Under the pieces are notes generated by a model, which did no database searches, was not told where the DNA came from, and saw only the letters and a program-made list of their open reading frames with translations. Source: Candidatus Methanoperedens sp. (lineage in GTDB: Archaea; Halobacteriota; Methanosarcinia; Methanosarcinales; Methanoperedenaceae). Taken from it: a stretch of DNA of 32,000 nucleotides. Shown here one piece after another: positions 1,347 through 23,837 of this stretch. A program made the translations under genes and the position numbers. How positions within the stretch are numbered: position 1 is the first letter of the stretch; each line of letters begins with the position of its first letter. The stretch spans positions 6,313 through 38,312 of the forward strand of contig JAPMTR010000074.1 of assembly GCA_026552975.1 (NCBI GenBank), read 5' to 3'.

Positions 1347-1943
1347 TCAGATCACTCCAAATAATGTATCAAATATTTGTTTAAGAAAAGCAAATATTGT
1401 GAATTTTTCAAGATTCCTATTTTTTTCAGGATCATTGGATGAAATAGGAGAATTAGTCATATAAACCTTGCCTTTTGCCCATGAACCATGACATATAGGG
1501 CAATTCTTGCTAATATTTTTGATGTGTATCGTGTGTACCTTGTTACTATGGCATAGTACACATTGAAATCCCTGTTTTTCAATTCCTTCGATCTTTACAA
1601 CAGTAAAATTATCCTGGGTATGACAGGTGGTACAATTTATTGCATTGTGCCCATTGTGAAATATCTGTTTCTCACTTGCATTGATCAGCGTGTTTCCCAT
1701 GTGGCAGGCTTTACAGATCTTTGGGTTATGTTCTTCCTCCAGTTTTGGCACATCTAATTTGTACTTATGGCAACCATTACATTCACTTTGTTGTGATCCA
1801 ACGCCAGCATTGAGAGTTTCACCATGACATCCTACGCAAGGAACAGGAATATGATCCTCTGGAATTTCTGATGCAGTTGCAAGGTCTGGAGTATACAGAA
1901 GAGAAATGAGGACTAAACAAATGACGACAATGTTTTTTTTCAT
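1347..1943 (-). CDS. small hexahaem c-type cytochrome with signal peptide
   Basis: 198 aa with a signal-like N-terminus (MKKNIVVICLVLISLLYTPDLATA). Six CxxCH motifs (CVGCH, CNGCH, CKACH, CTTCH, CVLCH, CPICH) in about 170 mature residues, plus many extra His residues that could serve as distal ligands. Confidence 0.85.
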   Translation of the reverse strand: MKKNIVVICLVLISLLYTPDLATASEIPEDHIPVPCVGCHGETLNAGVGSQQSECNGCHKYKLDVPKLEEEHNPKICKACHMGNTLINASEKQIFHNGHNAINCTTCHTQDNFTVVKIEGIEKQGFQCVLCHSNKVHTIHIKNISKNCPICHGSWAKGKVYMTNSPISSNDPEKNRNLEKFTIFAFLKQIFDTLFGVI

Positions 1944-2190: not shown

Positions 2191-3510
2191 TTATGTTGTT
2201 AAGGCTGTTGTATTGTCGCTTGAGTCTCCATCAAGGCCAATTGTTGTCTTCACAGTTGCACCATTAACGTACATATTTGCGCCTCCCCAGGTATAGCTCT
2301 TGTCACCAGTTGCATAGGTTGCTCCGGATCCATTGCCATATATCGCAACATTGACCTGACCTTCAGCGAGGAAGTTATCTACAGTCCAGCTGCCCGTTGC
2401 TGTGTTTACAGCATCGAATTGAACTTTGTATGCTTTCTGGAAGTTAATATCGACTGCTACGTGTGTATGACATGCTACGCATGCGATATTATTTGAGCCA
2501 TAACCTGTTCCTGGGCCTCTGAGAACGCCATTTGGATCTGCTACGACGAATTCATTGTGTGCTTCAAGTGAGCCTTCTGTAGCGCTACCTGTTGTCAATC
2601 CCAGACCATCAATTGCTTGGAATCCTCCAGCTGCCATGGCACCTACCCATTCGCCTCCGCCATAGTGGCAGTTACCACAGCTACTGGCTAACAAAGACCT
2701 GTGATTATAGGGTTGTGATTGTACAACCTCATATCCTGCAGCTCCCTTCTGCTGCTCTCCTCCATGGCATTCCAGGCATGAGACCAGTGATGCTGCATGA
2801 TATGTCTGACCAGGAGTCATCAAATTAGAACCTGATCCAGGCGCTATTGTATATGCTGTGTTAGAGGTCCATGTAATTCCTGACCATTCTTCAAAGTAGT
2901 TATCTGTCATATTAGTTTTCAGGGTACCATTAGAATTCCTCAAGTTAACGAGGCCCCCTGTATCATAATATTTATATTCTCCAGCAACAGCAGCATTTGA
3001 TAGGCTGCCAGTATATTCACCATCAATCAAGAGTGCTGTATTATTTAACCATTGGGTTAAATTGTCAGCCTTACGGGCTTTCAAGGGGTTAAGAGTGGTA
3101 TCATCCCAGTTATGTACGGTCAAGGTTGTATCATAAGTCAGATACTTCGGGAAGTTTCCGCCTTCAAAGTTTGAAATGCTTGTTAAAAGATATAGTCTAT
3201 AGGATTCATTAGCTACATTTCTATATCTCACGACTGCAAGCGCATCGTCACCGGATGCAAAGCCTGCTTCGGCCCTATGGCAGTATTCGCACTGGAATTT
3301 TGCATGTGGTGCACCTGATCCTGCTGTTGCCATGGATCCGCTTAATTCTGCTTTCACATCACCGTGACATTTTGCGCACGGTACCTGGTTGCCTGTTGCG
3401 TCAATATTGTAGAAAGTGTGCTGGCCTGAGAACAACGACATGGTTGATGGCAGGGCGAACACGCCAATCCCAATAAGGGCAATTATGGCTAAAGTAAATT
3501 TTGTGTTCAT
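2191..3510 (-). CDS. exported pentahaem c-type cytochrome with a large haem-free middle domain
   Basis: The ORF track gives 2191..3522 (443 aa, GTG start). I prefer the ATG at 3510 (MNTKFTLAIIALIG...) because an SD-like GGATGTGA ends 8 nt upstream of it. Hydrophobic N-terminus. Five CxxCH motifs (CAKCH, CEYCH, CLECH, CGNCH, CVACH), with 166 haem-free residues between motifs 2 and 3. Seven N-x-S/T sequons. Confidence 0.85.
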   Translation of the reverse strand: MNTKFTLAIIALIGIGVFALPSTMSLFSGQHTFYNIDATGNQVPCAKCHGDVKAELSGSMATAGSGAPHAKFQCEYCHRAEAGFASGDDALAVVRYRNVANESYRLYLLTSISNFEGGNFPKYLTYDTTLTVHNWDDTTLNPLKARKADNLTQWLNNTALLIDGEYTGSLSNAAVAGEYKYYDTGGLVNLRNSNGTLKTNMTDNYFEEWSGITWTSNTAYTIAPGSGSNLMTPGQTYHAASLVSCLECHGGEQQKGAAGYEVVQSQPYNHRSLLASSCGNCHYGGGEWVGAMAAGGFQAIDGLGLTTGSATEGSLEAHNEFVVADPNGVLRGPGTGYGSNNIACVACHTHVAVDINFQKAYKVQFDAVNTATGSWTVDNFLAEGQVNVAIYGNGSGATYATGDKSYTWGGANMYVNGATVKTTIGLDGDSSDNTTALTT

Positions 3511-3523
3511 ATTTTTATTCACA

Positions 3524-4365: not shown

Positions 4366-6156
4366 TTATAAAAACACCTGATACATCCATTTTAGAATAT
4401 TCTCCATGATCGGAATTATTGTTAGATTTTGAGACGGCGATATATAGGTAATAGTGACGATCCAGTAATAGAAAAGCAGCAATACAGAAGTTAAAGCAAG
4501 TGATAGGGACATTAAGAACAGAGTGGTTTTATCCAATATGTCAGAAAAAGAGTTCTTATTATCCCAAAAAATGCTCAATGATAATGAAATCATTAAGGAT
4601 CCAGACGTGACCAGTCCTAGCGAATGGTACTGACCTATAAATTTTGAAGGAAATACTTCAATAAAGAAAAATACTAGTATCATAGCTGATGAAATGTATA
4701 ATAGGGCTATTTTTTTAATGTTACTTTCGATCAGCTCCCTCACTTTATTTATCCTGAGTGCAAAATACAAAAGCACTATATACATAATAAGCAAATACCT
4801 GTATTCAAGGACGATTGGAGTATCGGTGATTATTGCCTGGATATAATTTTTATGCAATATAAAGAAAATTACCGCATATATTCCCAAAAATTTATCTATG
4901 GGACTTAACCTTATTTTCCCTTTTATCCTGTCCAATATAAATGCAAGTGCCATAATTAAGAAAGGACTAATTAATAGAATACCAAACGTGTTTCCCAATT
5001 TCAGTATCAAGATATCAAATAAAACATCAAGCGTTCCTGTACTGATATTGGGGCCCCAGGTAAATCCAAGTTTTTCCAGAAGCTGCGTCTGTTTGATCTT
5101 TGCTGGACCTTCACTGAGTGTGATCATATTTTGTTCGATCTGCATTCTCATGGGCGTATCACTCAGTGGATGCAATTCTATGATAGAGAACGGATCCCCC
5201 AGTATCATCTGATTGAAACTGAAAAACGGGGTAAGCGATACAAAAATTATCATTGCGATCAAAGCAAGGTGTTTGATGCCTCTCCTGAAAAATATTATAT
5301 CAAAAAACAGGAGTGAGAGCATAAGCGCCGCACCATCAAGCGTTCGCGTCCATATGCACAGGCCCGCCAGGATATAAGCAGCATACATGTACCTGATGTC
5401 CTTTTTCTCCTGGCATCTATACAAAAAGTAAAAAGCCAATACTGTCAATAATAATGCAAGTGAATGATGCTTTAGGGTCAGCGCATAAAAGGAAATGGGG
5501 GTAGCAAATATAATAAACAGGGAAGAAAAAATGGCGATCTTATCATTGAATATTTTCCTGAACAGGAAATAAATCATCACGATCAGAAATGACGTAATGA
5601 GAATATTAGTAAATTCAATCGAGATTATTTCTCCCCATTTTGGAAAATAAATGGGATCAAAGGATCGCATATTTACTAATATTAAAAATAAACAAAATGC
5701 CAAACCAAAAAAAAACGCTTTCTTTATCTGCCAAGCTTTTGCCAGAAGATAAAAACTGATCCCGCCGCTTAATGCCCATATCTGCAGGAGGAATAAATGA
5801 GCGCCATAAAATATGTCTATATTTTTCAATGCAAAATATACAGGTAAAGATAGAACCAGCAATGAATAACTGAATTTTCCATATAAATGGTTCGCTACGG
5901 TAATGTATATTCCTTTTTCTACATTTACCTTTGCTACTTTCAGTTCTAAGGAGCCATGAATGAAATTATAGAACTGGCTTACTATCACCCCTTCATCTGA
6001 AAAAAGCATACGGGTTCCTGCAAAACTGAGAAATATAAATAATGAACCAAAAAACAATATTAAAGGGATCTGGTTAGATCCAAATAACCTGACGATTTTC
6101 TTATACATTGATATTAATTCCTGTTTTCCAGTGATCATTATTTTATTCGAATACAT
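4366..6156 (-). CDS. polytopic integral membrane protein, possible GT-C-type glycosyltransferase (ArnT/PMT-like)
   Basis: 596 aa with at least 12 hydrophobic helices by eye. An acidic SDEG motif follows TM1, where GT-C enzymes carry a D/E motif in the first external loop. There is no WWDYG, so this is not a second AglB. The function is inference. Confidence 0.5.
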   Translation of the reverse strand: MYSNKIMITGKQELISMYKKIVRLFGSNQIPLILFFGSLFIFLSFAGTRMLFSDEGVIVSQFYNFIHGSLELKVAKVNVEKGIYITVANHLYGKFSYSLLVLSLPVYFALKNIDIFYGAHLFLLQIWALSGGISFYLLAKAWQIKKAFFFGLAFCLFLILVNMRSFDPIYFPKWGEIISIEFTNILITSFLIVMIYFLFRKIFNDKIAIFSSLFIIFATPISFYALTLKHHSLALLLTVLAFYFLYRCQEKKDIRYMYAAYILAGLCIWTRTLDGAALMLSLLFFDIIFFRRGIKHLALIAMIIFVSLTPFFSFNQMILGDPFSIIELHPLSDTPMRMQIEQNMITLSEGPAKIKQTQLLEKLGFTWGPNISTGTLDVLFDILILKLGNTFGILLISPFLIMALAFILDRIKGKIRLSPIDKFLGIYAVIFFILHKNYIQAIITDTPIVLEYRYLLIMYIVLLYFALRINKVRELIESNIKKIALLYISSAMILVFFFIEVFPSKFIGQYHSLGLVTSGSLMISLSLSIFWDNKNSFSDILDKTTLFLMSLSLALTSVLLLFYYWIVTITYISPSQNLTIIPIMENILKWMYQVFL

Positions 6157-9435: not shown

Positions 9436-11691
9436 TTAGTTCACCTTAATTACCCTTCCATTCATAATATCGTTCTGCGTTACTTGAACAAAAATACTTG
9501 AATTATCATATTTCAGGTTATAATCTTTTAATAATCGAGTCTGATAAGGGCTATCACTGGAATATGGAACAATAAATTCAAAATATCCCTTCTCATCAGC
9601 TTTTGTTTCCTGGAAATAATCATATTCACGTTCCTGGTTTGTAATAATTGTTCCTTTGATCAGTAAAGTCCCATTGGATGATGAATTTCCTATAATTTTG
9701 GCGCCTTTTACATATTCGAAGATTTTAATATTCTTAGTAATTTTATCCATCAAATTATAATGTGTTTCATTTGATTCATATATCATCCTGTAATTTCGAA
9801 GCCCATTCCCATCAAAAACATGAAGCCTGGCATACATAGACCTGGCATAATCTACATTTGGAAGATTGTTTCCATCCAGGAACATTCCAATATCCTTATC
9901 TGCAAAACTCACAATAGCCATGAATGTCCCTTTTAATACGACCTGGTTTCCCTGCTGGAATTTATTTAATCCCATCCTGTGATCAACGATAACATACCTT
10001 GCTTTTCGCTTATTCATCATACTGTTCGCATTTATCTCATCTGGTTCAACAAAAAATCTTGCAGCTTCATCCCCGCCTATCTGGAAATTATTAGCCACCA
10101 CCGGACGTTTTGAAATATACAGGATCCAGTTCCCATAATCCCACCATGTCATAATGCCATATTGGGGACTTTTTCCAGGATCCGGACTATTTTCCCTCAA
10201 CCAGGTCAAAGAATCGTACCAGTCATCTGTTGGTTTTGGTGGGGACTGAGCCATATTATATGCCTGTATAGCGTTTGGAATAACAAGAATGGCAAGAATG
10301 ACCAATGCTATATGACCTGATTTCAGGCCAGAATATTTAAATTTAGAACTATTTTTAATAATATTATTAACATGAAATATTATCTTATCTAAGAAGAATC
10401 CTGACAATAACACAATATTAACAGACAGCATGTATGAAAAGCGCCTCTGGTACAGGGCAAGCGCCAGGACTATTAATGTCCAGATCAAAAAGAACAATGT
10501 TCCTTGATCGATTCCTTTTCGATAACAATATAATAAAAAGAAAAACCCGATTATTGCAAAATAGAAACTAAATGCGAATTGATGCCAGACAGGATTGCTG
10601 AAAAATTGCCACCCCAGGAAGACCCCGTCAAATGTATAAAATAATGGCTGAGCCTCCACTATTTGTTTTAATACAGGTGCATCCCTGAGTAAATATCCTA
10701 TACCATTCATTAAACTGTCATAAAAAGAAGGCACGGTTAAGGATATGACGCTAAATAAAGATAAAAAACTTATTATAAGTAATAGTGGATATAAATACCA
10801 TTTCTTATCTTTCAAAATGCGGAAAGTTAACCCTGAAAAGATCACTATTACTGCACAAGTTATGACATATAAAGGCTGGAAATATGAAAGTGTCCCGAAT
10901 TGTAATGCTTTTTGCCATGGTGTCCAGAGATAAAACAATATGATCGTAAAAAAGGCAATGGAAAATGAAATAATTCCACTTTTTAGAAGATTATCAGATC
11001 CAACATTGGATTTTCTGTTCTGGATGAATTGAAATATTATATACAATAAAATTATTCCTATAAATATAGGAGCACCGATCCATGTAAGGAAAGATAATCC
11101 TATAATGATCCCTGATAAGATTGAAAACTTATTGAATTCATTTTTTAATGACATGATGAAAAACAAATATGCAAGAACTGAGATCAGAACCTCTGAAATA
11201 TGATGGTCAACAAATCCCAAAAATGAAATCTGGGCATGCGCTGGCATCACTGCAAGTAAAAGAGAGCTATAAAGACCAACACGCTCATTAAAAATTTCTT
11301 TTGAGATATAATATACCGAAATTATCGAAAATATTCCTAATATAACAGGAGTGAAAGCGCCTATTGTTTCAATAAGGTGTACGCCCGGACTGCCAAAACC
11401 AGCAATTATAGATACAAGCGCTATAGTTTGATCAAAAAGGGGCGGCCATCCAATAATTGCACCATATGGATAATTTATGAATGGTTCGAAAAAAAATGTT
11501 CCGGGGAATGTATCAATAAACGAAAATACCCTCCACATATGGTAATAAGGGTCAGTCTCAAGAAAAACGATCCTACCCTGCTCAAACACCTGTGAAAATG
11601 TAAAGAGTCTTACAATAAGACCGATCAAAAGTATTACAAATAAAAATATGGAGCTCTGAGAGTTTATCCTGATATTTTTCAAATGTGACAT
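9436..11691 (-). CDS. aglB: archaeal oligosaccharyltransferase AglB (STT3 family)
   Basis: 751 aa with about 13 N-terminal TM helices and a soluble C-terminal domain. The WWDYG catalytic motif is at aa 516-520 (nt 10132-10146; I verified atgacatggtgggattatggg on the minus strand). Acidic loop motifs ETDPYYH (aa 45-51) and GFVDHH (aa 159-164) are present. Confidence 0.95.
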   Translation of the reverse strand: MSHLKNIRINSQSSIFLFVILLIGLIVRLFTFSQVFEQGRIVFLETDPYYHMWRVFSFIDTFPGTFFFEPFINYPYGAIIGWPPLFDQTIALVSIIAGFGSPGVHLIETIGAFTPVILGIFSIISVYYISKEIFNERVGLYSSLLLAVMPAHAQISFLGFVDHHISEVLISVLAYLFFIMSLKNEFNKFSILSGIIIGLSFLTWIGAPIFIGIILLYIIFQFIQNRKSNVGSDNLLKSGIISFSIAFFTIILFYLWTPWQKALQFGTLSYFQPLYVITCAVIVIFSGLTFRILKDKKWYLYPLLLIISFLSLFSVISLTVPSFYDSLMNGIGYLLRDAPVLKQIVEAQPLFYTFDGVFLGWQFFSNPVWHQFAFSFYFAIIGFFFLLYCYRKGIDQGTLFFLIWTLIVLALALYQRRFSYMLSVNIVLLSGFFLDKIIFHVNNIIKNSSKFKYSGLKSGHIALVILAILVIPNAIQAYNMAQSPPKPTDDWYDSLTWLRENSPDPGKSPQYGIMTWWDYGNWILYISKRPVVANNFQIGGDEAARFFVEPDEINANSMMNKRKARYVIVDHRMGLNKFQQGNQVVLKGTFMAIVSFADKDIGMFLDGNNLPNVDYARSMYARLHVFDGNGLRNYRMIYESNETHYNLMDKITKNIKIFEYVKGAKIIGNSSSNGTLLIKGTIITNQEREYDYFQETKADEKGYFEFIVPYSSDSPYQTRLLKDYNLKYDNSSIFVQVTQNDIMNGRVIKVN

Positions 11692-11773: not shown

Positions 11774-12532
11774 TCATTTCACATACAACAGGCCTTTCCC
11801 ATTGCCAATAACATCACCTGTATATTTTTTATAGGTTACGCCATCCACAATCTCATCGCCTTCAAGCTTAAAGACTGGCATCATCTCTTCCACTTTTCCA
11901 TTCACGATTATTGTGCCTTTTGACATCTCGCTCCCGGGACGGCTGGTATTGCCACCGATCACGATCTTTCCGCCATTGTTGCTCAATCCAGGAAGTATGC
12001 CTGTGTTCCCTTTCACTATGATCTCACCGCCGCACATATGCTCGCCAACGAAATCAAGTGCATTGCCCATTACGGTTATTTTGCCACCGCGCATGCCGCA
12101 GCTCTCACCGCGATATCCGGCGCCAAGGTAATAAGCAGCATTTCCTTCAATAATAAGCTCGCCGCCTTTCATTTCCCGCCCTGCCCAGGAGTCAACATTG
12201 CCTTTTACTGAGATTTTCCCGCCACTCATTTTCGCGCCAAGGTGCATGTCCACGTTACCAGTTATCAATATCAGGCCAGCGGTCATTCCTTCGCCGATCC
12301 TCTTTACACGTGAGAAGTCACCTTCAAGAATGATCTTTGTGTCTGCTGCTGGACCTGAACCTTCCACTTTTACAGAGAATAACTCTCCGATCGTTGTCTT
12401 CTGATTCCCCATCCATGCAACAAGCGCATGTATCTCTTTTTCAGTCTTCCCTGAAAATATATCCGCAGATATATTTTCACCCTCAACTGATATTTTTATT
12501 TCTTTCTTTGGTTTTAATGTAACTGTCTGCAT
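11774..12532 (-). CDS. fwdC: formylmethanofuran dehydrogenase subunit C
   Basis: 252 aa of repeated G-x-x-G-x-x-G beta-helix units (GNVDMHLGAKMSGGKISVKGNVDSWAGREMKGGELIIEGNA...), typical of FwdC/FmdC. The start overlaps the fwdA stop by 1 nt. Confidence 0.92.
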   Translation of the reverse strand: MQTVTLKPKKEIKISVEGENISADIFSGKTEKEIHALVAWMGNQKTTIGELFSVKVEGSGPAADTKIILEGDFSRVKRIGEGMTAGLILITGNVDMHLGAKMSGGKISVKGNVDSWAGREMKGGELIIEGNAAYYLGAGYRGESCGMRGGKITVMGNALDFVGEHMCGGEIIVKGNTGILPGLSNNGGKIVIGGNTSRPGSEMSKGTIIVNGKVEEMMPVFKLEGDEIVDGVTYKKYTGDVIGNGKGLLYVK

Positions 12533-14253
12533 TAGTTCACCTCCGCAGGAATGATTCCGGCTTTTACAACCTGCTGGTGAGTGAGATATTCATCCTGCAC
12601 CATATAATTTGCAAGTTGCATAGAATAATAATTCTTGAATTTCTTGACAATATCCTTCATCATTTCATCATGATGCTGCTGCGGGACTTTTGCATCGACC
12701 CAGTATGTCCTTCCCAGAGGCGTTGCTGTGATCTGTCCATCTTTCACCACAACATTGCCGCCTTTTATCGTATAAGCAGCTGAAGAGAATGCGCTCTTTA
12801 TCTTTGCATGCTCAACTGTTGGGTCTATCTGGTCAGGTTTGATATCATATATTGAAATATCAGCATCTGCTCCAACGCCAAGATGACCTTTCGTATCAAG
12901 AAGCCCTAAAACCTTAGCTGTACCAGCTCTTGTCATAATGGCTATTTCACTGAAATCCAGCTCACGATCAAGCCCGGGCAATTTATTCTTTGCATGTACT
13001 GCTTCATGTACCGTCTTGATCTCTTCCTGGCGCTTCTTATTGCTCATAAGAAGTGCTATGACTTCCGAATAATTCACGAACGGCCCGCCATTGGGATGGT
13101 CAGTGGTCAAAAGCATCTGGTACGGGTCTTTTGTCAGTAAAGCAAGTTCAAGACCTATAGCCCACATGATAGCATGAACTGAGATCTGTTTTACATAATA
13201 AATTGGCACAACGCCCGATGCATCCTCAAGTTCAACATCCCCATTGCTCCATTTAGCATGCAATAATTTTGCATTGGCATATTGCTTTGGACCATCCGCG
13301 GTCATGGTCGTTGCGCTTCCAAAGATCATCTGTCCCATATCACCTGTTACATTTTTGTGATTGTTCAGGAAATTAGCGACCTCATCAGCCTTTGATTCAA
13401 AGTCCCCCCAGTTGGTGCCGCCCCATGAATTGAACAATAAATGAGTGACGTGCATTACCTGCCTTTTCTTGCTGGCTTTGACCTGGTTGGCCAGTTCCAT
13501 GCTCGCAAGGGTGGTCTTATAATTTCCAGGATTTCCAAGATTGTTGCAGTGTAGATGCACAGAATGCGGAAGTCCCAGCATCTCATTGACTTTCATCAAG
13601 GATACTATGATCTCTTTTGGGGTCACATCAAAACCAGGGACAACATCGTCAATACCTGTTACGTTCTTGCCAAAGCCCCACATCTCGCCGCCGCCTGGAT
13701 TTACGCATTTGACGCCAAATCCCCTGCTTGCAAGAAGACCCCATGACACATAAGCAGCAAGCTTATCCATGTCCTTCTCGCGCACAAAGTCCATTGTAGG
13801 CCAGTTGCTCCCAAAAAGCGTGAGCGCGCCTTTGTCGATTATGGGTATTTCTTCAAGTTCCTCGTGCGTATGACGGGCTTTCATAATAGCCTGTGCAGCC
13901 TCAAAAACTGTTGTATAACCCATCTGTGCATAGCGATATCCCATTGCATAGACATTAGGCACTGTGTATCCTGTGCATGGTCTTGTTATTTTTGTCCTGG
14001 GTGAAATACCTGATCTGCTGTCCTCAGGACGCATCATTCGTCCCACATTGACTTTTGCACCTGCTATGTGGGAATGTGCATCTACGCCCCCTGCCATGAC
14101 CAGTCTTCCGCCTGCATCAATTATAGTTGCTTTACTGCTAACTGTTTTCACGATCTTGCCATCTTTTATGGAAATATCGGTTTTATCTCCCTTATTGCCA
14201 TTTACCGGGTCAACGACCGCGCCATTCTTTATAAGAAGTTCCATTTTATTCAC
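12532..14253 (-). CDS. fwdA: formylmethanofuran dehydrogenase subunit A (amidohydrolase fold)
   Basis: 573 aa. The metal-binding motif GGVDAHSHIAG lies near the N-terminus. Length and operon context match FwdA. Confidence 0.92.
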   Translation of the reverse strand: MNKMELLIKNGAVVDPVNGNKGDKTDISIKDGKIVKTVSSKATIIDAGGRLVMAGGVDAHSHIAGAKVNVGRMMRPEDSRSGISPRTKITRPCTGYTVPNVYAMGYRYAQMGYTTVFEAAQAIMKARHTHEELEEIPIIDKGALTLFGSNWPTMDFVREKDMDKLAAYVSWGLLASRGFGVKCVNPGGGEMWGFGKNVTGIDDVVPGFDVTPKEIIVSLMKVNEMLGLPHSVHLHCNNLGNPGNYKTTLASMELANQVKASKKRQVMHVTHLLFNSWGGTNWGDFESKADEVANFLNNHKNVTGDMGQMIFGSATTMTADGPKQYANAKLLHAKWSNGDVELEDASGVVPIYYVKQISVHAIMWAIGLELALLTKDPYQMLLTTDHPNGGPFVNYSEVIALLMSNKKRQEEIKTVHEAVHAKNKLPGLDRELDFSEIAIMTRAGTAKVLGLLDTKGHLGVGADADISIYDIKPDQIDPTVEHAKIKSAFSSAAYTIKGGNVVVKDGQITATPLGRTYWVDAKVPQQHHDEMMKDIVKKFKNYYSMQLANYMVQDEYLTHQQVVKAGIIPAEVN

Positions 14254-15544
14254 CCCTTAATTCTCTCACACGTTGCGTTATCTTTTCAAGAATCTCAACA
14301 TCTGTTGGAAGTGTAGGTTCGATCATCTTCCTCATCCGCATGGATACTCCATCCATCCTGTATGCTGTGCCTTCAACCTCCACGCCGCAGATCGCTACGG
14401 GAATGACCACATTGGAGACCTCTGTTGTTGGATTCCAGTATGGGTCGATCTGGACCACGGGGATCCTTGCAAGATGGCGCACAGAATCTGCCGGGAAATG
14501 AGCGCCTGCGTCACCAGCGATTATCATTGCAGCATCTGTTTCTTTTCTCATCAGCACATCGTTCGCAGCGGTCTCGCCTGGATTATAATATGGAGCGCCT
14601 CGGGCAAAATCAACTGCAGTGGCAAAACCTGTTTCCCATGAACATACCTGTCCGAAACCTGTGACATTATAGTGTCCGCGCATGGGTGTTATTACATATT
14701 TTGTATATGCGTTCAACTCTGTTATGAGTGAAATGGCATTGTCTATGTTCTTGTATCTGGATATGCTCTGGGTAAGACCCATACCGAAAAAGACCGCGCC
14801 GAATTTTGCAGCCTTAAGTGTATCCACAAGTTTTGAAAGCTGCTCTTTTGTAACGCCGCCAACTGATTCTGGTACAACGTCCGCATGCCCTGAAAGTATG
14901 GCGCGAAGAGCCGAAATAACAAGGTAATCGCTTCCCTGCTGCACCTGTACGAATTCATCTGCCATGGATGCAGTTTCAGTCTTCCTGACGTCAACCACTA
15001 TAACTTTTCGTCCTTTACGCCCTTTTTCCTGGAAGAATCCTTTTGCAAAGACAGAATATCGTCCCATGTGCCTTGGGTGGGCATGGACAGGATTGCTTCC
15101 CCAGAATACAACCACATCTGAGCGGTTCTTTACCTGGCCAAGGGTGGCTGTGGGAAGACCTTTTTCATGAACGGCAAGTGTTGATGGCGCGTGGCATACT
15201 GTCGCTGTATTATCGATTATCGCCCCTACTTCCTCTGCAAGTAAGATCCCTTTTTTATGAACTTCACACACAGCTGACGCCCAGCCATACATTAAAGGCC
15301 TTTTGGATTTAAATAGTATCGAAGCTGCCTCATTTATGGCTTCGTCATAAGAAACTTCCTTGAACTCGGATTTTTTATCAGCCCTCATCATCGGGGCTTC
15401 TATTCTGTGATGCCCCATTATTTTTGCCGAGCCCAGTTTACAGGCGTTTTTAATATCAGTTATCTTGTTGTTTTCCACAACAATGGTCAGGTCATCGCAC
15501 AAACAGCCGCAAAAAGGGCAAAGTGCATCTGTTATTACTGTCAT
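14246..15544 (-). CDS. fwdB: formylmethanofuran dehydrogenase subunit B (molybdo/tungstopterin subunit), cysteine type
   Basis: 432 aa. N-terminal FeS motif CPFCGCLCDD. Cys117 in DNTATVCHAPS is at the position of the metal-ligating Cys/Sec. No in-frame TGA. It overlaps fwdA by 8 nt and fwdD by 1 nt. Confidence 0.92.
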   Translation of the reverse strand: MTVITDALCPFCGCLCDDLTIVVENNKITDIKNACKLGSAKIMGHHRIEAPMMRADKKSEFKEVSYDEAINEAASILFKSKRPLMYGWASAVCEVHKKGILLAEEVGAIIDNTATVCHAPSTLAVHEKGLPTATLGQVKNRSDVVVFWGSNPVHAHPRHMGRYSVFAKGFFQEKGRKGRKVIVVDVRKTETASMADEFVQVQQGSDYLVISALRAILSGHADVVPESVGGVTKEQLSKLVDTLKAAKFGAVFFGMGLTQSISRYKNIDNAISLITELNAYTKYVITPMRGHYNVTGFGQVCSWETGFATAVDFARGAPYYNPGETAANDVLMRKETDAAMIIAGDAGAHFPADSVRHLARIPVVQIDPYWNPTTEVSNVVIPVAICGVEVEGTAYRMDGVSMRMRKMIEPTLPTDVEILEKITQRVRELRGE

Positions 15545-15921
15545 TACTTATACCTCGCGATCAAATCTTTCATGGATAATATTTTTTTATCAGTAGGCTC
15601 TAACCGCGCCTTTATTCCTTTAAATCCTGGCATCCCGCAGCCCTTTGTATCAGGATCAACAACAGCATTTGCCCACGGCCCCATGGGAATGAAAGCCATG
15701 CCGTCAGGATTGCCATTGTTCTCTTTTAATTTTACGACCACATCACCGTGATCTGTCTTTACAGATATCTGGCTTCCTGGTTTTATCCCAAGGATGCCTA
15801 TATCCTTTGAGTTCAATTCACATAAAGCGGTCGCTTCCTGATAATCCAGGGACGTCTTGTTCTCGATAGTCGCTCCCTGGTTTATTGTTCTTCCGGTTAT
15901 CAGTATTGCATTTAATGTCAT
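15544..15921 (-). CDS. fwdD: formylmethanofuran dehydrogenase subunit D (molybdopterin dinucleotide-binding domain)
   Basis: 125 aa. ILITGRTINQG... and the beta-barrel-like remainder are typical of FwdD. It is the first gene of the D-B-A-C operon. Confidence 0.88.
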   Translation of the reverse strand: MTLNAILITGRTINQGATIENKTSLDYQEATALCELNSKDIGILGIKPGSQISVKTDHGDVVVKLKENNGNPDGMAFIPMGPWANAVVDPDTKGCGMPGFKGIKARLEPTDKKILSMKDLIARYK

Positions 15922-21532: not shown

Positions 21533-22411
21533 ATGACCCTCAAAAATACTAAATCAAATTCTTCACTGTATAGTTCAACGTGTTTAAATTTATTATTGAT
21601 CGTATTAATTTTTTTAATCGTTCCTGCTGGAGCGGTCGATCTTGATGCTCTTAATAATTCGTGCATAAACTGTCACGAAAATGTGACTGTGAAAAAACCG
21701 TCCGAAAATTTCCAGCGATGGTCTGATTCCATACATTCAAGTTATTTTGTTACATGCGATGCCTGCCATGGTGGGAACCCTGATGTAACGACTGAATCAG
21801 AAGCACATTCAACTATGAAGAATGTGACCGACCCCAAAAGCCCTATTTATTTTAAGAATATTCCTGAAACATGCGGGAAATGTCATAGTACAGAATTAGA
21901 TCATTTTAAGAACACTATGCACTTTGAAAGATTAAGAGCAGAAGCAAGCGCCCCGTCCTGTGCCACATGTCATAAACCCCACAGCTTTAAAGTATTAAAG
22001 GCATCTGAACTCTTACCACTGTGCAGCGTATGTCATAATGTAAGAGATATGCCTTCATCTGCAAATGTTCCAAACGATGCGAAAATCGCTCTTGAAATGG
22101 CGGATGAATTACAAAATGAAATAATGGCCCTGAGTAATTCCTTATCTGATGCAAAGGCAAAAGGAATGGATGTCTCTTCAGCTCAGAAGGATCTGGATAA
22201 AGCAACATTTGTTATAAAAGATGTTCCATCCCTCTGGCATAGCTTTAACCTCAAAGCTTTTGATATACAGATCCAGAGCGGGATAGATTCTGCCAGGAAA
22301 GGCCAGAATAAATTAAGCGAAGTTGAGCCAACAGCTCCATCTGTTCCAGGGTTCGGAATCGTCATGGTCCTTGGTTTATTCGCAACATTATATATTATTA
22401 GAAAAATTTGA
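21533..22411 (+). CDS. pentahaem c-type cytochrome with helical stalk and PGF-CTERM archaeosortase sorting signal
   Basis: 292 aa with an N-terminal signal/anchor. Five CxxCH motifs (CINCH, CDACH, CGKCH, CATCH, CSVCH) in the first ~165 aa, followed by about 90 haem-free helical residues. The C-terminus is ...APSVPGFGIVMVLGLFATLYIIRKI (PGF at nt 22346-22354, hydrophobic helix, basic tail). SD-like GGAGAAGG lies upstream. Confidence 0.88.
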   Translation: MTLKNTKSNSSLYSSTCLNLLLIVLIFLIVPAGAVDLDALNNSCINCHENVTVKKPSENFQRWSDSIHSSYFVTCDACHGGNPDVTTESEAHSTMKNVTDPKSPIYFKNIPETCGKCHSTELDHFKNTMHFERLRAEASAPSCATCHKPHSFKVLKASELLPLCSVCHNVRDMPSSANVPNDAKIALEMADELQNEIMALSNSLSDAKAKGMDVSSAQKDLDKATFVIKDVPSLWHSFNLKAFDIQIQSGIDSARKGQNKLSEVEPTAPSVPGFGIVMVLGLFATLYIIRKI

Positions 22412-22422
22412 AGGGATTTATA

Positions 22423-23517
22423 ATGGATAAAATATCATTAATTGACGTTATCAAACATCGGATTTCTAAGTACAAATTGCCAATTATAATAGTGTTTATA
22501 GTGATGCTTTTTACTATAATTATTATTTCCGCAAAAGTACTTGAGATCTCAGAGAATCCAGCATTCTGCGGTAAAAATTGCCATATTATGAGGCCTTATT
22601 ATGATTCATGGAGAAGTTCATCCCATACAGATGTGAGATGTGTAGAATGCCATTATGAACCAGGTGTGTTAGGTCATATAAAAGGTAAGCTCAATGGACT
22701 CATGCAATTCTACAGCTATGAGACTACAGTTGAAGAATACTCTGGAAAGTTATATGCAAAAGTCATGGATAAAAACTGCCTGGTATGCCATGAAACACAC
22801 ATTTTTTCCGTGGATGTTCCATTCACAGGCGTGAACTTTAGCCATAAGAATCATTTGCTAAAACCAAATAGAAATATTACATTAACATGCACAAGCTGCC
22901 ATTCTATGCTGGTTATAGGTATGAAAGAACACCAATCGGTATCTGACCCTTCATGTTCCCAGTGTCATCCGAATATTGTCCAGAATGACGTGGGTCATAT
23001 TGTTGTAACCACTTCAACATGCTTTACCTGCCACTTCAGGGATGTTCCAGTGGATAGTTCAATCTCAGGATGTCCATCATGTCATGGTCCTCCAAGGGAA
23101 ATGCACAGGAATTATACTAACTTCAACCATACAAGCCACCTTGACCGTGGAGCGCATTGCCAGACATGCCATATAAATATTTCAATCGGTGCAAATGATA
23201 TTGTTTCCAAGGATAAATGCAATTCATGCCATTATAATCCGGAAAGAGTAGCAAGATATGATGATTTTGAGTTTGTGCACAAGAACCATGTCACAAACAA
23301 TAAGATAGCATGCTACAACTGTCATTCCGAGGTAATGCATTCACCCGGAATAAAACAAAACCTTTGTGCAGACTGTCATCAGGGTCAGCATCCGAGCGAT
23401 TGGTTGAATACACATAAATCAAAGGTCTTGATAGGACAGGTTTGCAATGATTGTCATCAGCCAAAATTCTGCGCAGACTGTCACGCAACAGGAAAATCCG
23501 TAAAATTGGCCAAATAG
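22423..23517 (+). CDS. N-terminally anchored NapC/NirT-like multihaem cytochrome, 13 haem motifs
   Basis: The track starts at TTG 22408, overlapping the upstream stop. ATG 22423 (MDKISLIDV...) is the alternative start. After one TM helix comes FCGKNCHIMRPYYDSWRSSSHTDVRCVECH, the NapC/NirT N-terminal pattern. There are 12 CxxCH motifs plus one CX3CH (CGKNCH, nt 22567-22584). Confidence 0.85.
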   Translation: MDKISLIDVIKHRISKYKLPIIIVFIVMLFTIIIISAKVLEISENPAFCGKNCHIMRPYYDSWRSSSHTDVRCVECHYEPGVLGHIKGKLNGLMQFYSYETTVEEYSGKLYAKVMDKNCLVCHETHIFSVDVPFTGVNFSHKNHLLKPNRNITLTCTSCHSMLVIGMKEHQSVSDPSCSQCHPNIVQNDVGHIVVTTSTCFTCHFRDVPVDSSISGCPSCHGPPREMHRNYTNFNHTSHLDRGAHCQTCHINISIGANDIVSKDKCNSCHYNPERVARYDDFEFVHKNHVTNNKIACYNCHSEVMHSPGIKQNLCADCHQGQHPSDWLNTHKSKVLIGQVCNDCHQPKFCADCHATGKSVKLAK

Positions 23518-23606: not shown

Positions 23607-23837
23607 ATGGTAATCGGAGTAACACTCGTAAATGTTGTACCAGGACAGGAAAAAACAGCTTATAATGAGCTGGTTAAAATAAAAGGGATAAAAGATGTAT
23701 ATCATGTGTTCGGAGAGTATGATTTCGTCGTAATTAGCAATGTAGAAGGATTAAGCGCCTTGAATAAACTCGTTGATACAATAAGAGAAAGTGAAAATAT
23801 CACTGCAACACAAACAATAGTAGGCGCTGAACTTTAA
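23607..23837 (+). CDS. stand-alone Lrp/AsnC-type ligand-binding (RAM) domain protein, no HTH
   Basis: 76 aa. VTLVNVVPGQEKTAYNELVKIKGIKDVYHVFGEYDFVVISNVEGLSALNKLVDTIRESENITATQT matches the beta-alpha-beta-beta-alpha-beta RAM domain pattern. GGAG lies 7 nt upstream of the ATG. Confidence 0.75.
   Translation: MVIGVTLVNVVPGQEKTAYNELVKIKGIKDVYHVFGEYDFVVISNVEGLSALNKLVDTIRESENITATQTIVGAEL

Follow-up and report, generated by a model that had tools for sequence, protein, structure and literature searches.

We analysed a stretch of 32,000 nucleotides from Candidatus Methanoperedens sp. (contig JAPMTR010000074.1, positions 6,313 to 38,312 of the forward strand; hereafter the window) and in it the gene of a c-type cytochrome with five CxxCH motifs, which we call the pentahaem protein. 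It is best viewed as an exported cytochrome held at the membrane by its C-terminal tail, a descendant of a PGF-CTERM sorting signal, and its gene lies next to that of a 13-haem cytochrome resembling NrfH. We think it probable that it serves as a tethered relay, which would take electrons from this partner and pass them outward. The initial annotation had described a cytochrome with a PGF-CTERM signal and a haem-free helical stalk, and had offered lipid anchoring and a relay towards the S-layer as an inference. Export, tethering and a PGF-related tail were borne out, while a standard signal and a stalk serving as an inert spacer were not.

The open reading frame (ORF) at 21533-22411 (+) was the sole long one at that site, its translation was identical to that first quoted for it, and GGAG was found about 10 nucleotides 5' of its ATG. 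By eye, the N-terminus consists of lysines, followed by 19 hydrophobic residues (residues 12-30, mean hydropathy 2.46) and PAGA; A34 is conserved in at least 90% of the family. All the elements originally listed, namely an N-terminal hydrophobic signal, five CxxCH motifs, a haem-free helical region and the tail PGFGIVMVLGLFATLYIIRKI, were present, and the haem span given as residues ~40-165 was right, the last haem histidine being H168. The protein scored above the gathering scores of the Pfam multihaem families PF14522 (29.9 bits vs 24.8) and PF09699 (27.0 vs 20.6), and also passed PF14537 (27.3 bits vs 25) and PF22113 (30.8 vs 30). With its five CxxCH motifs, N-terminal hydrophobic signal and profile matches, it has what defines a multihaem cytochrome c, and its sequence, including the signal read by eye, supports the view that it is exported. 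Three N-x-S/T sequons (N41, N50 and N97) lie in the mature protein, and N-glycosylation is possible.

A search of 5.8 billion proteins returned 170 homologues at an expectation value (E) <=1e-3, and every one named by a source was 'Candidatus Methanoperedens'. The 120 homologues listed of these 170 had E<=1e-103, 50-79% identity and, in 120/120, an identical architecture. Because there are 170 homologues and the architecture is kept in all 120 listed, the pentahaem ORF is not a chance ORF. Among species-representative genomes there were 348 relatives, the closest at 76% identity, and the best 80 of the 348 all came from Methanoperedens or close kin (Methanoperedenaceae, unclassified Methanosarcinales/Euryarchaeota). 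Judged by these comparisons, the family is real, conserved and restricted to Methanoperedens. Most members have about 324 residues and contain, after haem 1, a 32-residue insert with a sixth motif, CSLECH (CxxxCH), and an extra histidine. The insert is absent from the 292-residue form of the window, as seen by comparison with the homologues P0030, P0042, P0059 and P0070; its clade has lost this sixth-haem insert, and the form is thus a pentahaem offshoot of a hexahaem family. The public labels of the homologues examined were 'hypothetical protein', 'cytochrome c7', 'cytochrome c3 family protein' or a nitrite-reductase subunit name. Outside Methanoperedens, P0264 (564 residues, from a metagenome-assembled genome of Candidatus Woesearchaeota), a distantly related protein, contains the haem core and helical domain in tandem duplicate and ends in a plain hydrophobic helix without PGF.

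The family also has a paralogue, a hexahaem cytochrome that is the first gene of an operon with NrfC- and NrfD-like genes (locus L003, 6477-7409; L005, 3385-4299; L006, 3461-4420); in most genomes both families are encoded in that one operon. Aligned profile to profile, the two families matched with a probability of 100%, an E of 1e-112 and 34% identity over 305 columns, up to the last residue of the tail. They share the order of signal, haem core, helical domain with W-H-x-F-N, linker and tail. Unlike the pentahaem protein, the paralogue has a sixth haem (CxxxCH), a variable Pro/Thr-rich linker and PGF in 114 of its 120 listed tails. In what follows, tail counts out of 120 refer to the homologues listed for each family, some counts were made on 116 tails, and conservation was calculated from 81 sequences; an exact look-up of the pentahaem protein in public assemblies gave no record, and gene context was drawn from the loci of homologues.

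The tail EPTAPSVPGFGIVMVLGLFATLYIIRKI is found at the extreme C-terminus; in it, 16 hydrophobic residues in a row (mean hydropathy 2.49) precede RKI. The terminus ...VEPTAPSVPGFGIVMVLGLFATLYIIRKI thus comprises PGF, 16 hydrophobic residues and a basic end, and this tripartite arrangement (PGFG, hydrophobic 16, RKI at residues 272-292 of 292) was kept in 120/120 of the homologues listed. Scoring of the tail with the PGF-CTERM profile hidden Markov models (HMMs), a test that the initial annotation had itself named as able to refute it, placed it below both curated cut-offs. TIGR04126 (NCBIfam) gave 14.0-15.6 bits against a cut-off of 24.5, the full-length protein giving no match at E<=1, and PF18204 (Pfam) gave 13.4-15.9 bits against a gathering score of 18.8. 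Orthologue tails with PGI, PGV, PAI or PEV gave no match to PF18204. Control tails from the same lineage reached 28.1 and 19.0 bits (paralogous family) and 29.4 and 20.2 bits (distant relatives) on PF18204. The paralogue at L003 6477-7409, which ends in TPGFISLAGLIALLAVSYLIRRK, was the one that passed with 28.1 bits; other tails of its family scored 19.0 bits or did not match at all, though PGF is nearly invariant there. TIGR04126 is strict in this lineage, giving 18.0 bits to a tail that passes Pfam. A precomputed Pfam PGF-CTERM match was present in 1/120 listed homologues of the PGF-bearing paralogue, which indicates that the model badly under-detects paralogue tails. Since PF18204 misses paralogous tails with a near-invariant PGF, the failure of the window tail is weak evidence. 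Evidently, the profile models under-detect the Ile/Leu/Tyr-rich tails of this AT-rich lineage.

Conservation was more informative. At the four positions before the helix, 116 tails had P in 105, G in 84, then I in 49, V in 28 or F in 18, and finally G in 108. The corresponding family values were 0.93 for P, 0.75 for G, 0.42 for I as third residue and 0.95 for the second G; further on, they were 0.91 for Y287, 0.89 for R290 and 0.89 for K291. PGF itself was present in 19/120 listed family tails (F in 16%), most of the others being PGI or PGV, and the named strains had PGP, PGI, PGA, PGA and PGV. The F of the window is therefore a minority state within the family, and the P-G-F signature is not conserved among orthologues, contrary to what a standard PGF-CTERM signal would require. 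The closest relatives (70-79% identity) have nearly all PGI, and a single base change, ATC to TTC, gives the F of the window; for these two reasons the F looks neutral. Since the paralogue of the same genomes keeps PGF in 95%, selection on F seems to be relaxed in the window family. The linker preceding the tail behaved differently: E265 (0.96), P266 (0.89), T267 (0.93) and P269 (0.93) make the family motif E-P-T-x-P a better conserved linker than the Pro/Thr-rich one of the PGF-bearing paralogue, which varies.

Because the paralogue, which aligns through the tail, keeps PGF in 114/120, we read the tail as a diverged descendant of a PGF-CTERM signal with positions 2 and 3 relaxed (P-G/A-I/V/F-G). 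When the last 117 residues were searched against 1.84 billion representative proteins, 23 matches were obtained, and the more distant of these (Methanoperedens where named) bear PGF tails. We fetched 747 kilobases (kb) of loci, nearly all belonging to Methanoperedens and its close kin, and found the helical domain combined with a tail in 136 distinct ORFs, of which 101 had PGF, 12 PGI, 5 PGV and 4 PGA. What survives of the original description is thus a tripartite tail of the length and position of a PGF-CTERM signal, homologous to genuine PGF-CTERM tails in paralogues and distant relatives that keep PGF. A non-cytochrome protein of Methanoperedens with a CARDB domain (L007, 10942-12087) ends in ...KQSGFEAVIVGIGILMALALRRK, so that xGF-type tails also occur on other surface proteins of the lineage.

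That the tail tethers the protein to the membrane is well supported. The relaxed signature can be read in two ways: either the helix is kept as an anchor and an enzyme requiring F is not needed, or a sortase of different specificity is at work. Conservation of the hydrophobic core did not separate the two, because it was 0.64 in the window family and 0.60 in the paralogue, i.e., no difference.

We give about an even chance to the first possibility, in which a former sorting signal has become a permanent C-terminal transmembrane anchor beside the membrane-bound partner. It would account for the relaxation of signature positions 2 and 3 with retention of hydrophobicity and of the basic end, and it agrees with the finding that the Pfam PGF-CTERM model matched none of the PGI, PGV, PAI and PEV tails tested. 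C-terminal helices without PGF also occur in small monohaem proteins of Methanoperedens (ending in ...VYIIRL) and in the Woesearchaeota relative, and the part of Chadwick et al. 2022 (PMC9012536) that deals with small cytochromes of anaerobic methanotrophic archaea (ANME) describes both types of anchor. Against it, 16 hydrophobic residues are few to span a membrane stably; a simple anchor would not require P272, G275 and the E-P-T-x-P before them to be kept so strictly; and the core conservation just mentioned gives no sign of a new helix-packing constraint.

Somewhat short of an even chance, in our estimate, is the original proposal that the signal works, archaeosortase A removing the helix and attaching an archaeal lipid to give a lipid-anchored cytochrome on a stalk; the small remainder would fall to some other fate. 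With its canonical P-G-F-G and basic end, the window tail fits a PGF-CTERM signal in length and position, and PGF-CTERM was its best or second-best family match, though below the cut-offs. Its common ancestry with PGF tails that pass Pfam (28.1 and 19.0 bits for the paralogous, 29.4 and 20.2 for the distant ones), the conservation of P272 and G275 (at least 93%) and the insensitivity of the HMM in this lineage, where it misses paralogue tails with near-invariant PGF, all favour processing. According to the genome survey in PMC5244752, as far as it bears on archaeosortases, each of two ANME-2d genomes contains the ArtA family (IPR014522) twice and the ArtC family once or twice, and one or two PGF-CTERM proteins were detected by HMM in these same genomes; two ArtA-family genes for one or two detected substrates leave room for undetected ones. 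Lipid-linked small ANME cytochromes have, in addition, already been predicted in the relevant section of Chadwick et al. 2022 (PMC9012536). Opposed to this are the two missed cut-offs, the rarity of F (19/120) and the replacement of G273 in about a quarter of the family, the near-universal PGI of the closest relatives, one base change away from an F that looks neutral, and the retention of PGF in 95% of the paralogue of the same genomes, as if F were selected where the signal is used and relaxed here. In Haloferax volcanii, proteins with a permuted PGF are not processed (review PMC6098224), which would speak against processing of the family. Furthermore, no archaeosortase gene was found in Pfam scans of the ORFs of the 32-kb window, made without a search with an ArtA sequence, or when six polytopic membrane ORFs from the 747 kb of related loci were scanned against NCBIfam, again without an ArtA query. 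A Methanoperedens plasmid preprint and a haloarchaeal rhomboid paper provided no useful link to archaeosortase.

It is unlikely, in our opinion, that the family bears a distinct functional signal, approximately E-P-T-x-P-x-x-P-G-[I/V/F]-G, helix, R-K-R, read, with relaxed or altered specificity, by either of the two ArtA-family enzymes that have been reported for Methanoperedens. If it did, one operon would encode two lipid-anchored cytochromes sorted by PGF and PG[I/V], respectively, and a new class of archaeosortase signal dedicated to respiratory electron relays would have to be recognised.

Two other observations concern C-terminal anchors. Monohaem cytochromes of about 115-150 residues stand next to the PGF paralogue (L003, 7479-7928, and many of the loci L047-L081); they have a C-terminal module ...EIGVHMNTWDVG followed by a hydrophobic helix ending in ...VYIIRL, without PGF, and this module may be a separate kind of anchor. 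In two genomes (L003, 14908-15717; L006, 11771-12586), a gene for a zf-AN1 and rhomboid protease protein is found a few kb 3' of the cytochrome operon. Rhomboids cut single-pass membrane helices, and to regard this one as an alternative processing route for C-terminal anchors is pure speculation.

We then considered the region between the haem core and the tail, described initially as a haem-free helical stalk. Residues 179-262 indeed contain no haem motif and are helical, but they do not make a single helix of ~90 residues. The prediction of its structure, which had been recommended, gave a confident three-helix domain: AlphaFold2 placed helices at residues 179-209, 215-236 and 240-262 with a predicted local distance difference test (pLDDT) score >90, beyond which lie a linker of 10 residues and the last helix (273-291). 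Foldseek aligned the three-helix part with designed antiparallel three-helix bundles (template modelling (TM) score 0.68-0.70, root-mean-square deviation 2.1-2.6). As modelled, the region measures about 4 nm and does not form one rod of 90 residues. The mean conservation of the commonest residue was 0.69-0.77 across the three helices, compared with 0.81 in the haem core. In the motif P232-S-L-W235-H236-x-F238-N-L, W235-H236 was invariant in the 81 family members, and W235, H236 and F238 were invariant in the paralogous family too (93 sequences over both families). H236 is probably a haem ligand, as this conservation suggests, and the up-down-up topology of the model would put it at that end of the bundle which the chain enters on coming from haem 5. 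The three-helix bundle would then be an integral part of the redox domain rather than an inert spacer, and the idea of a passive stalk does not fit a conserved domain with an invariant W235-H236. The far end of the bundle plausibly points to the linker and the membrane in the model. The notion that the haem core is held away from the membrane is therefore plausible by topology; 'haem-free spacer' is the wrong description of what holds it.

In the haem core, the cysteines and histidines of the CxxCH motifs were invariant or nearly so. Exactly five histidines outside these motifs (H68, H92, H130, H150 and H236) were invariant across both paralogous families. This is the number that five bis-histidine haems would need, and H68, H92, H130 and H150 are, by their conservation, candidate distal ligands. 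An AlphaFold2 model built from the family-only alignment (model 1) had a pLDDT <50 in the haem core; a second one, built from the two-family alignment (model 2), reached 74. With model 1, Foldseek gave generic helical bundles and marginal NrfA or MccA matches. With model 2, NrfA ranked first (E 0.13), and each of the top nine matches was an NrfA, an octahaem nitrite reductase or a hydroxylamine oxidoreductase; probabilities went up to 0.96, E was 0.13-0.7, never below 0.1, and the TM score was ~0.28. A sequence search of solved structures gave a marginal local match to NrfA (E 0.026). Proteins of the NrfA / octahaem nitrite reductase / hydroxylamine oxidoreductase superfamily have long C-terminal helices. 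The sequence and model comparisons hint at a distant kinship with this superfamily, too little to claim membership, as the protein contains no CxxCK and stays at 23.1 bits against 24.1 for PF02335 and at 18.5 against 595 for NF008339. It is very improbable that it is a small catalytic NrfA relative forming an NrfHA-type enzyme with its NrfH-like partner: the gene pairing, the nine Foldseek matches and the local matches to PF02335 (E 4.3e-5), NF008339 (E 6e-4) and solved NrfA sequences would fit such an enzyme, whereas all five motifs are CxxCH, the five extra histidines suit five bis-histidine electron-transfer haems without an open site, the PF02335 score and the Foldseek values are poor, the protein is ~200 residues shorter than NrfA, and a canonical NrfA/NrfH pair is encoded separately in Methanoperedens (Arshad 2015, PMC4683180).

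The partner ORF opens at a TTG (22408), and its likely start is the ATG at 22423, preceded by GAAGGG and about 11 nucleotides after the pentahaem gene. Its first haem motif is CxxxCH (CGKNCH) instead of CxxCH, followed by I-M. The N-terminal module matched TIGR03153 (NrfH) with an E of 7e-18 and 64.9 bits (cut-off 134.2), and beyond this NrfH-like tetrahaem module there are nine further haem motifs. We found 408 homologues of the partner, many with a precomputed PF03264 (NapC/NirT) match, and bacterial relatives at 33-38% identity. One of the homologues, P0303 from Candidatus Methanoperedens nitroreducens, is labelled 'DnaJ-class molecular chaperone with C-terminal Zn finger domain', most likely a mis-annotation due to its repeated CxxC motifs. 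The two genes were adjacent in every locus inspected, with gaps of ~10 nucleotides or less, including those of ANME-2d, BLZ2, Mnv1, FeB_1 and MnB_21. In most genomes, the long form (~324 residues) and the partner are part of a conserved operon encoding, in this order, the paralogous hexahaem cytochrome, a small cytochrome, an NrfC-like iron-sulfur protein, an NrfD-like membrane protein and the pair; it often continues with a b-type cytochrome and another multihaem cytochrome. Clusters of this kind are regarded as menaquinone:cytochrome c oxidoreductases (Leu et al. 2020, PMC7327174).

Arshad et al. 2015 (PMC4683180) reported MPEBLZ_04299, with 5 CxxCH motifs, an N-terminal transmembrane helix and an expression of 993 reads per kilobase per million mapped reads (RPKM), and MPEBLZ_04300, with 12 CxxCH motifs and one CxxxCH, an N-terminal helix and an RPKM of 907, and gave ANME2D_00603/ANME2D_00604 as their homologues. 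These are probable orthologues of the pair, because the motif counts match and L037 lies at about 549 kb on ANME2D contig 1. In a literature search, the MPEBLZ_04299/04300 locus tags were mentioned by Arshad 2015 alone. We also considered the two-cytochrome cluster upregulated on electrodes (Ouboter et al. 2024), which is similar to the long-form operon; the gene order did not match cleanly, and we claim no identity.

The relay that we favour would work as follows. The pentahaem protein would be produced together with its partner and exported to the outer face of the membrane, where a short Pro-rich linker and the hydrophobic tail would tether it. The NrfH-like partner, anchored by its N-terminal helix, would oxidise membrane quinol (menaquinol has been proposed for the lineage), and electrons would run along its haem chain to the pentahaem protein, which would hand them over to other outward-facing cytochromes or reductases. 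H236 would probably be the sixth ligand of one haem, so that the three-helix domain would belong to the redox module; its up-down-up topology would also let this domain lift the haem core ~4 nm off the membrane. The interaction of the pair, the direction of electron flow, the ligand role of H236, the distance of the haem core from the membrane and what becomes of the tail are what we infer. Several points weigh against this scheme. The quinol-oxidising role of the partner, as read from its sequence, depends on an NrfH match below the cut-off (64.9 vs 134.2 bits). M129 is invariant as well and may be a ligand in place of one of the histidines. The haem core was modelled moderately (pLDDT 43-88, predicted TM score 0.40), and where H236 lies with respect to a haem, and how the helical domain is oriented, were derived from topology. 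Finally, the MPEBLZ and ANME2D genes were identified by matching features and genome position, not by sequence comparison.

The central idea of the initial annotation has already been published. In its sections on archaeosortases, Timmers et al. 2017 (PMC5244752) reported archaeosortases A and C in ANME-2a and ANME-2d genomes, and genes that join multihaem cytochrome domains with PGF- or PEF-CTERM domains. In the part of their study concerned with such proteins, Chadwick et al. 2022 (PMC9012536) described numerous small, transcribed ANME multihaem cytochromes with single C-terminal anchors or PGF-CTERM motifs, the latter predicted to link covalently to lipids, and suggested a CymA-like role. 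The pentahaem protein belongs to the same class, for which CymA-like or relay roles were proposed in these sections, and is an ordinary member of it, not a new kind of system; its family, the degenerate signature, the three-helix domain and the 13-haem pairing are not named there. New here, for one family, are the degenerate signature alongside a strict PGF in the same-operon paralogue, a three-helix domain that is conserved and contains an invariant histidine, a gene that is always paired with that of a 13-haem NrfH-like protein, and the poor sensitivity of PGF-CTERM profile models in the lineage.

Compared with PGF-CTERM proteins in general, the pentahaem protein has the same tripartite tail at the C-terminus, with a Pro-Gly motif, about 16-17 hydrophobic residues and basic residues, shares its ancestry with PGF tails that pass Pfam, and comes from a lineage reported to encode ArtA in the survey of PMC5244752. 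It differs in that its tail falls under both cut-offs, the family signature is P-G/A-I/V/F-G, and the linker is a short conserved E-P-T-x-P instead of being long, variable and Thr/Pro-rich. The resemblance to NrfH-NrfA and CymA modules lies in a membrane-anchored NapC/NirT/NrfH-type gene beside that of a pentahaem partner, in the x-M that follows the first haem motif of the 13-haem protein, as in NrfH, and in the weak likeness of the pentahaem protein to NrfA in sequence and fold. Unlike these modules, it has no catalytic CxxCK, the partner contains 13 haem motifs instead of 4, the two genes are in the opposite order, the pentahaem protein has a membrane tether of its own, and all matches are under the family cut-offs.

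The window has a G+C content of 39.8% and contains housekeeping genes: a formylmethanofuran dehydrogenase-like cluster and genes for the AglB oligosaccharyltransferase, DnaJ, topoisomerase VI B and A, ribosomal protein L15e and SecF/SecD. The stretch thus comes from a Methanoperedens chromosome. The domain set of the four-gene cluster listed with the other features below is that of formylmethanofuran dehydrogenase subunits C, A, B and D.

Features of the pentahaem gene, its partner and the rest of the window (positions in the window)
Feature	Position	Strand	Remarks
Pentahaem c-type cytochrome gene, 292 residues	21533..22411	+	Stop codon included; from ORF list and translation
N-terminal export signal or signal anchor, residues 1-34	21533..21634	+	Basic n-region, hydrophobic residues 12-30, PAGA
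Haem-binding core, residues 44-168, five CxxCH	21662..22036	+	C44, C75, C114, C143, C164
Three-helix domain, residues 179-263 (the 'stalk' of the initial annotation)	22067..22321	+	AlphaFold2, Foldseek, conservation
Invariant W235-H236 in the helical domain (motif P-S-L-W-H-x-F-N-L)	22235..22240	+	Conservation
Proline-rich linker V-E-P-T-x-P-x-x, residues 264-271	22322..22345	+	Conserved
C-terminal tripartite tail PGFG-IVMVLGLFATLYII-RKI, residues 272-292	22346..22408	+	Diverged PGF-CTERM type
13-haem NapC/NirT/NrfH-like cytochrome	22423..23517	+	N-terminal membrane helix, 12 CxxCH and 1 CxxxCH
ORF of 76 residues (MVIGVTLVNVVPGQEK...)	23607-23837	+	Between cytochrome pair and topoisomerase VI B; outside the list of ORFs of at least 100 residues
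c-type cytochrome, 198 residues, 6 CxxCH	1347-1943	-	N-terminal signal, without C-terminal hydrophobic tail
c-type cytochrome, 443 residues, 5 CxxCH	2191-3522	-	N-terminal signal, without C-terminal hydrophobic tail
PMT_2-family glycosyltransferase	4366-6156	-	
AglB/STT3 oligosaccharyltransferase	9436-11691	-	
Four-gene cluster	11774-15921	-	GXGXG, amidohydrolase, molybdopterin oxidoreductase and molybdopterin-binding domains

These results leave the current picture of ANME electron transfer unchanged. They indicate that one PGF tripeptide in one sequence is too little to call a signal and that its conservation in the family must be checked. The counts of archaeosortase substrates in ANME genomes are likely underestimates, because the profile models under-detect such tails in an AT-rich lineage. 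The question that they serve is by which route Methanoperedens, whose acceptors include nitrate reductase, metal oxides and electrodes, conducts electrons from the quinol pool across the extra-membrane space. All the named strains examined have relatives of the gene pair, which is conserved throughout Methanoperedens and whose probable orthologues are transcribed at a high level. A tether derived from a sorting signal and a 'stalk' that is probably haem-bound would help to build testable models of this electron chain.

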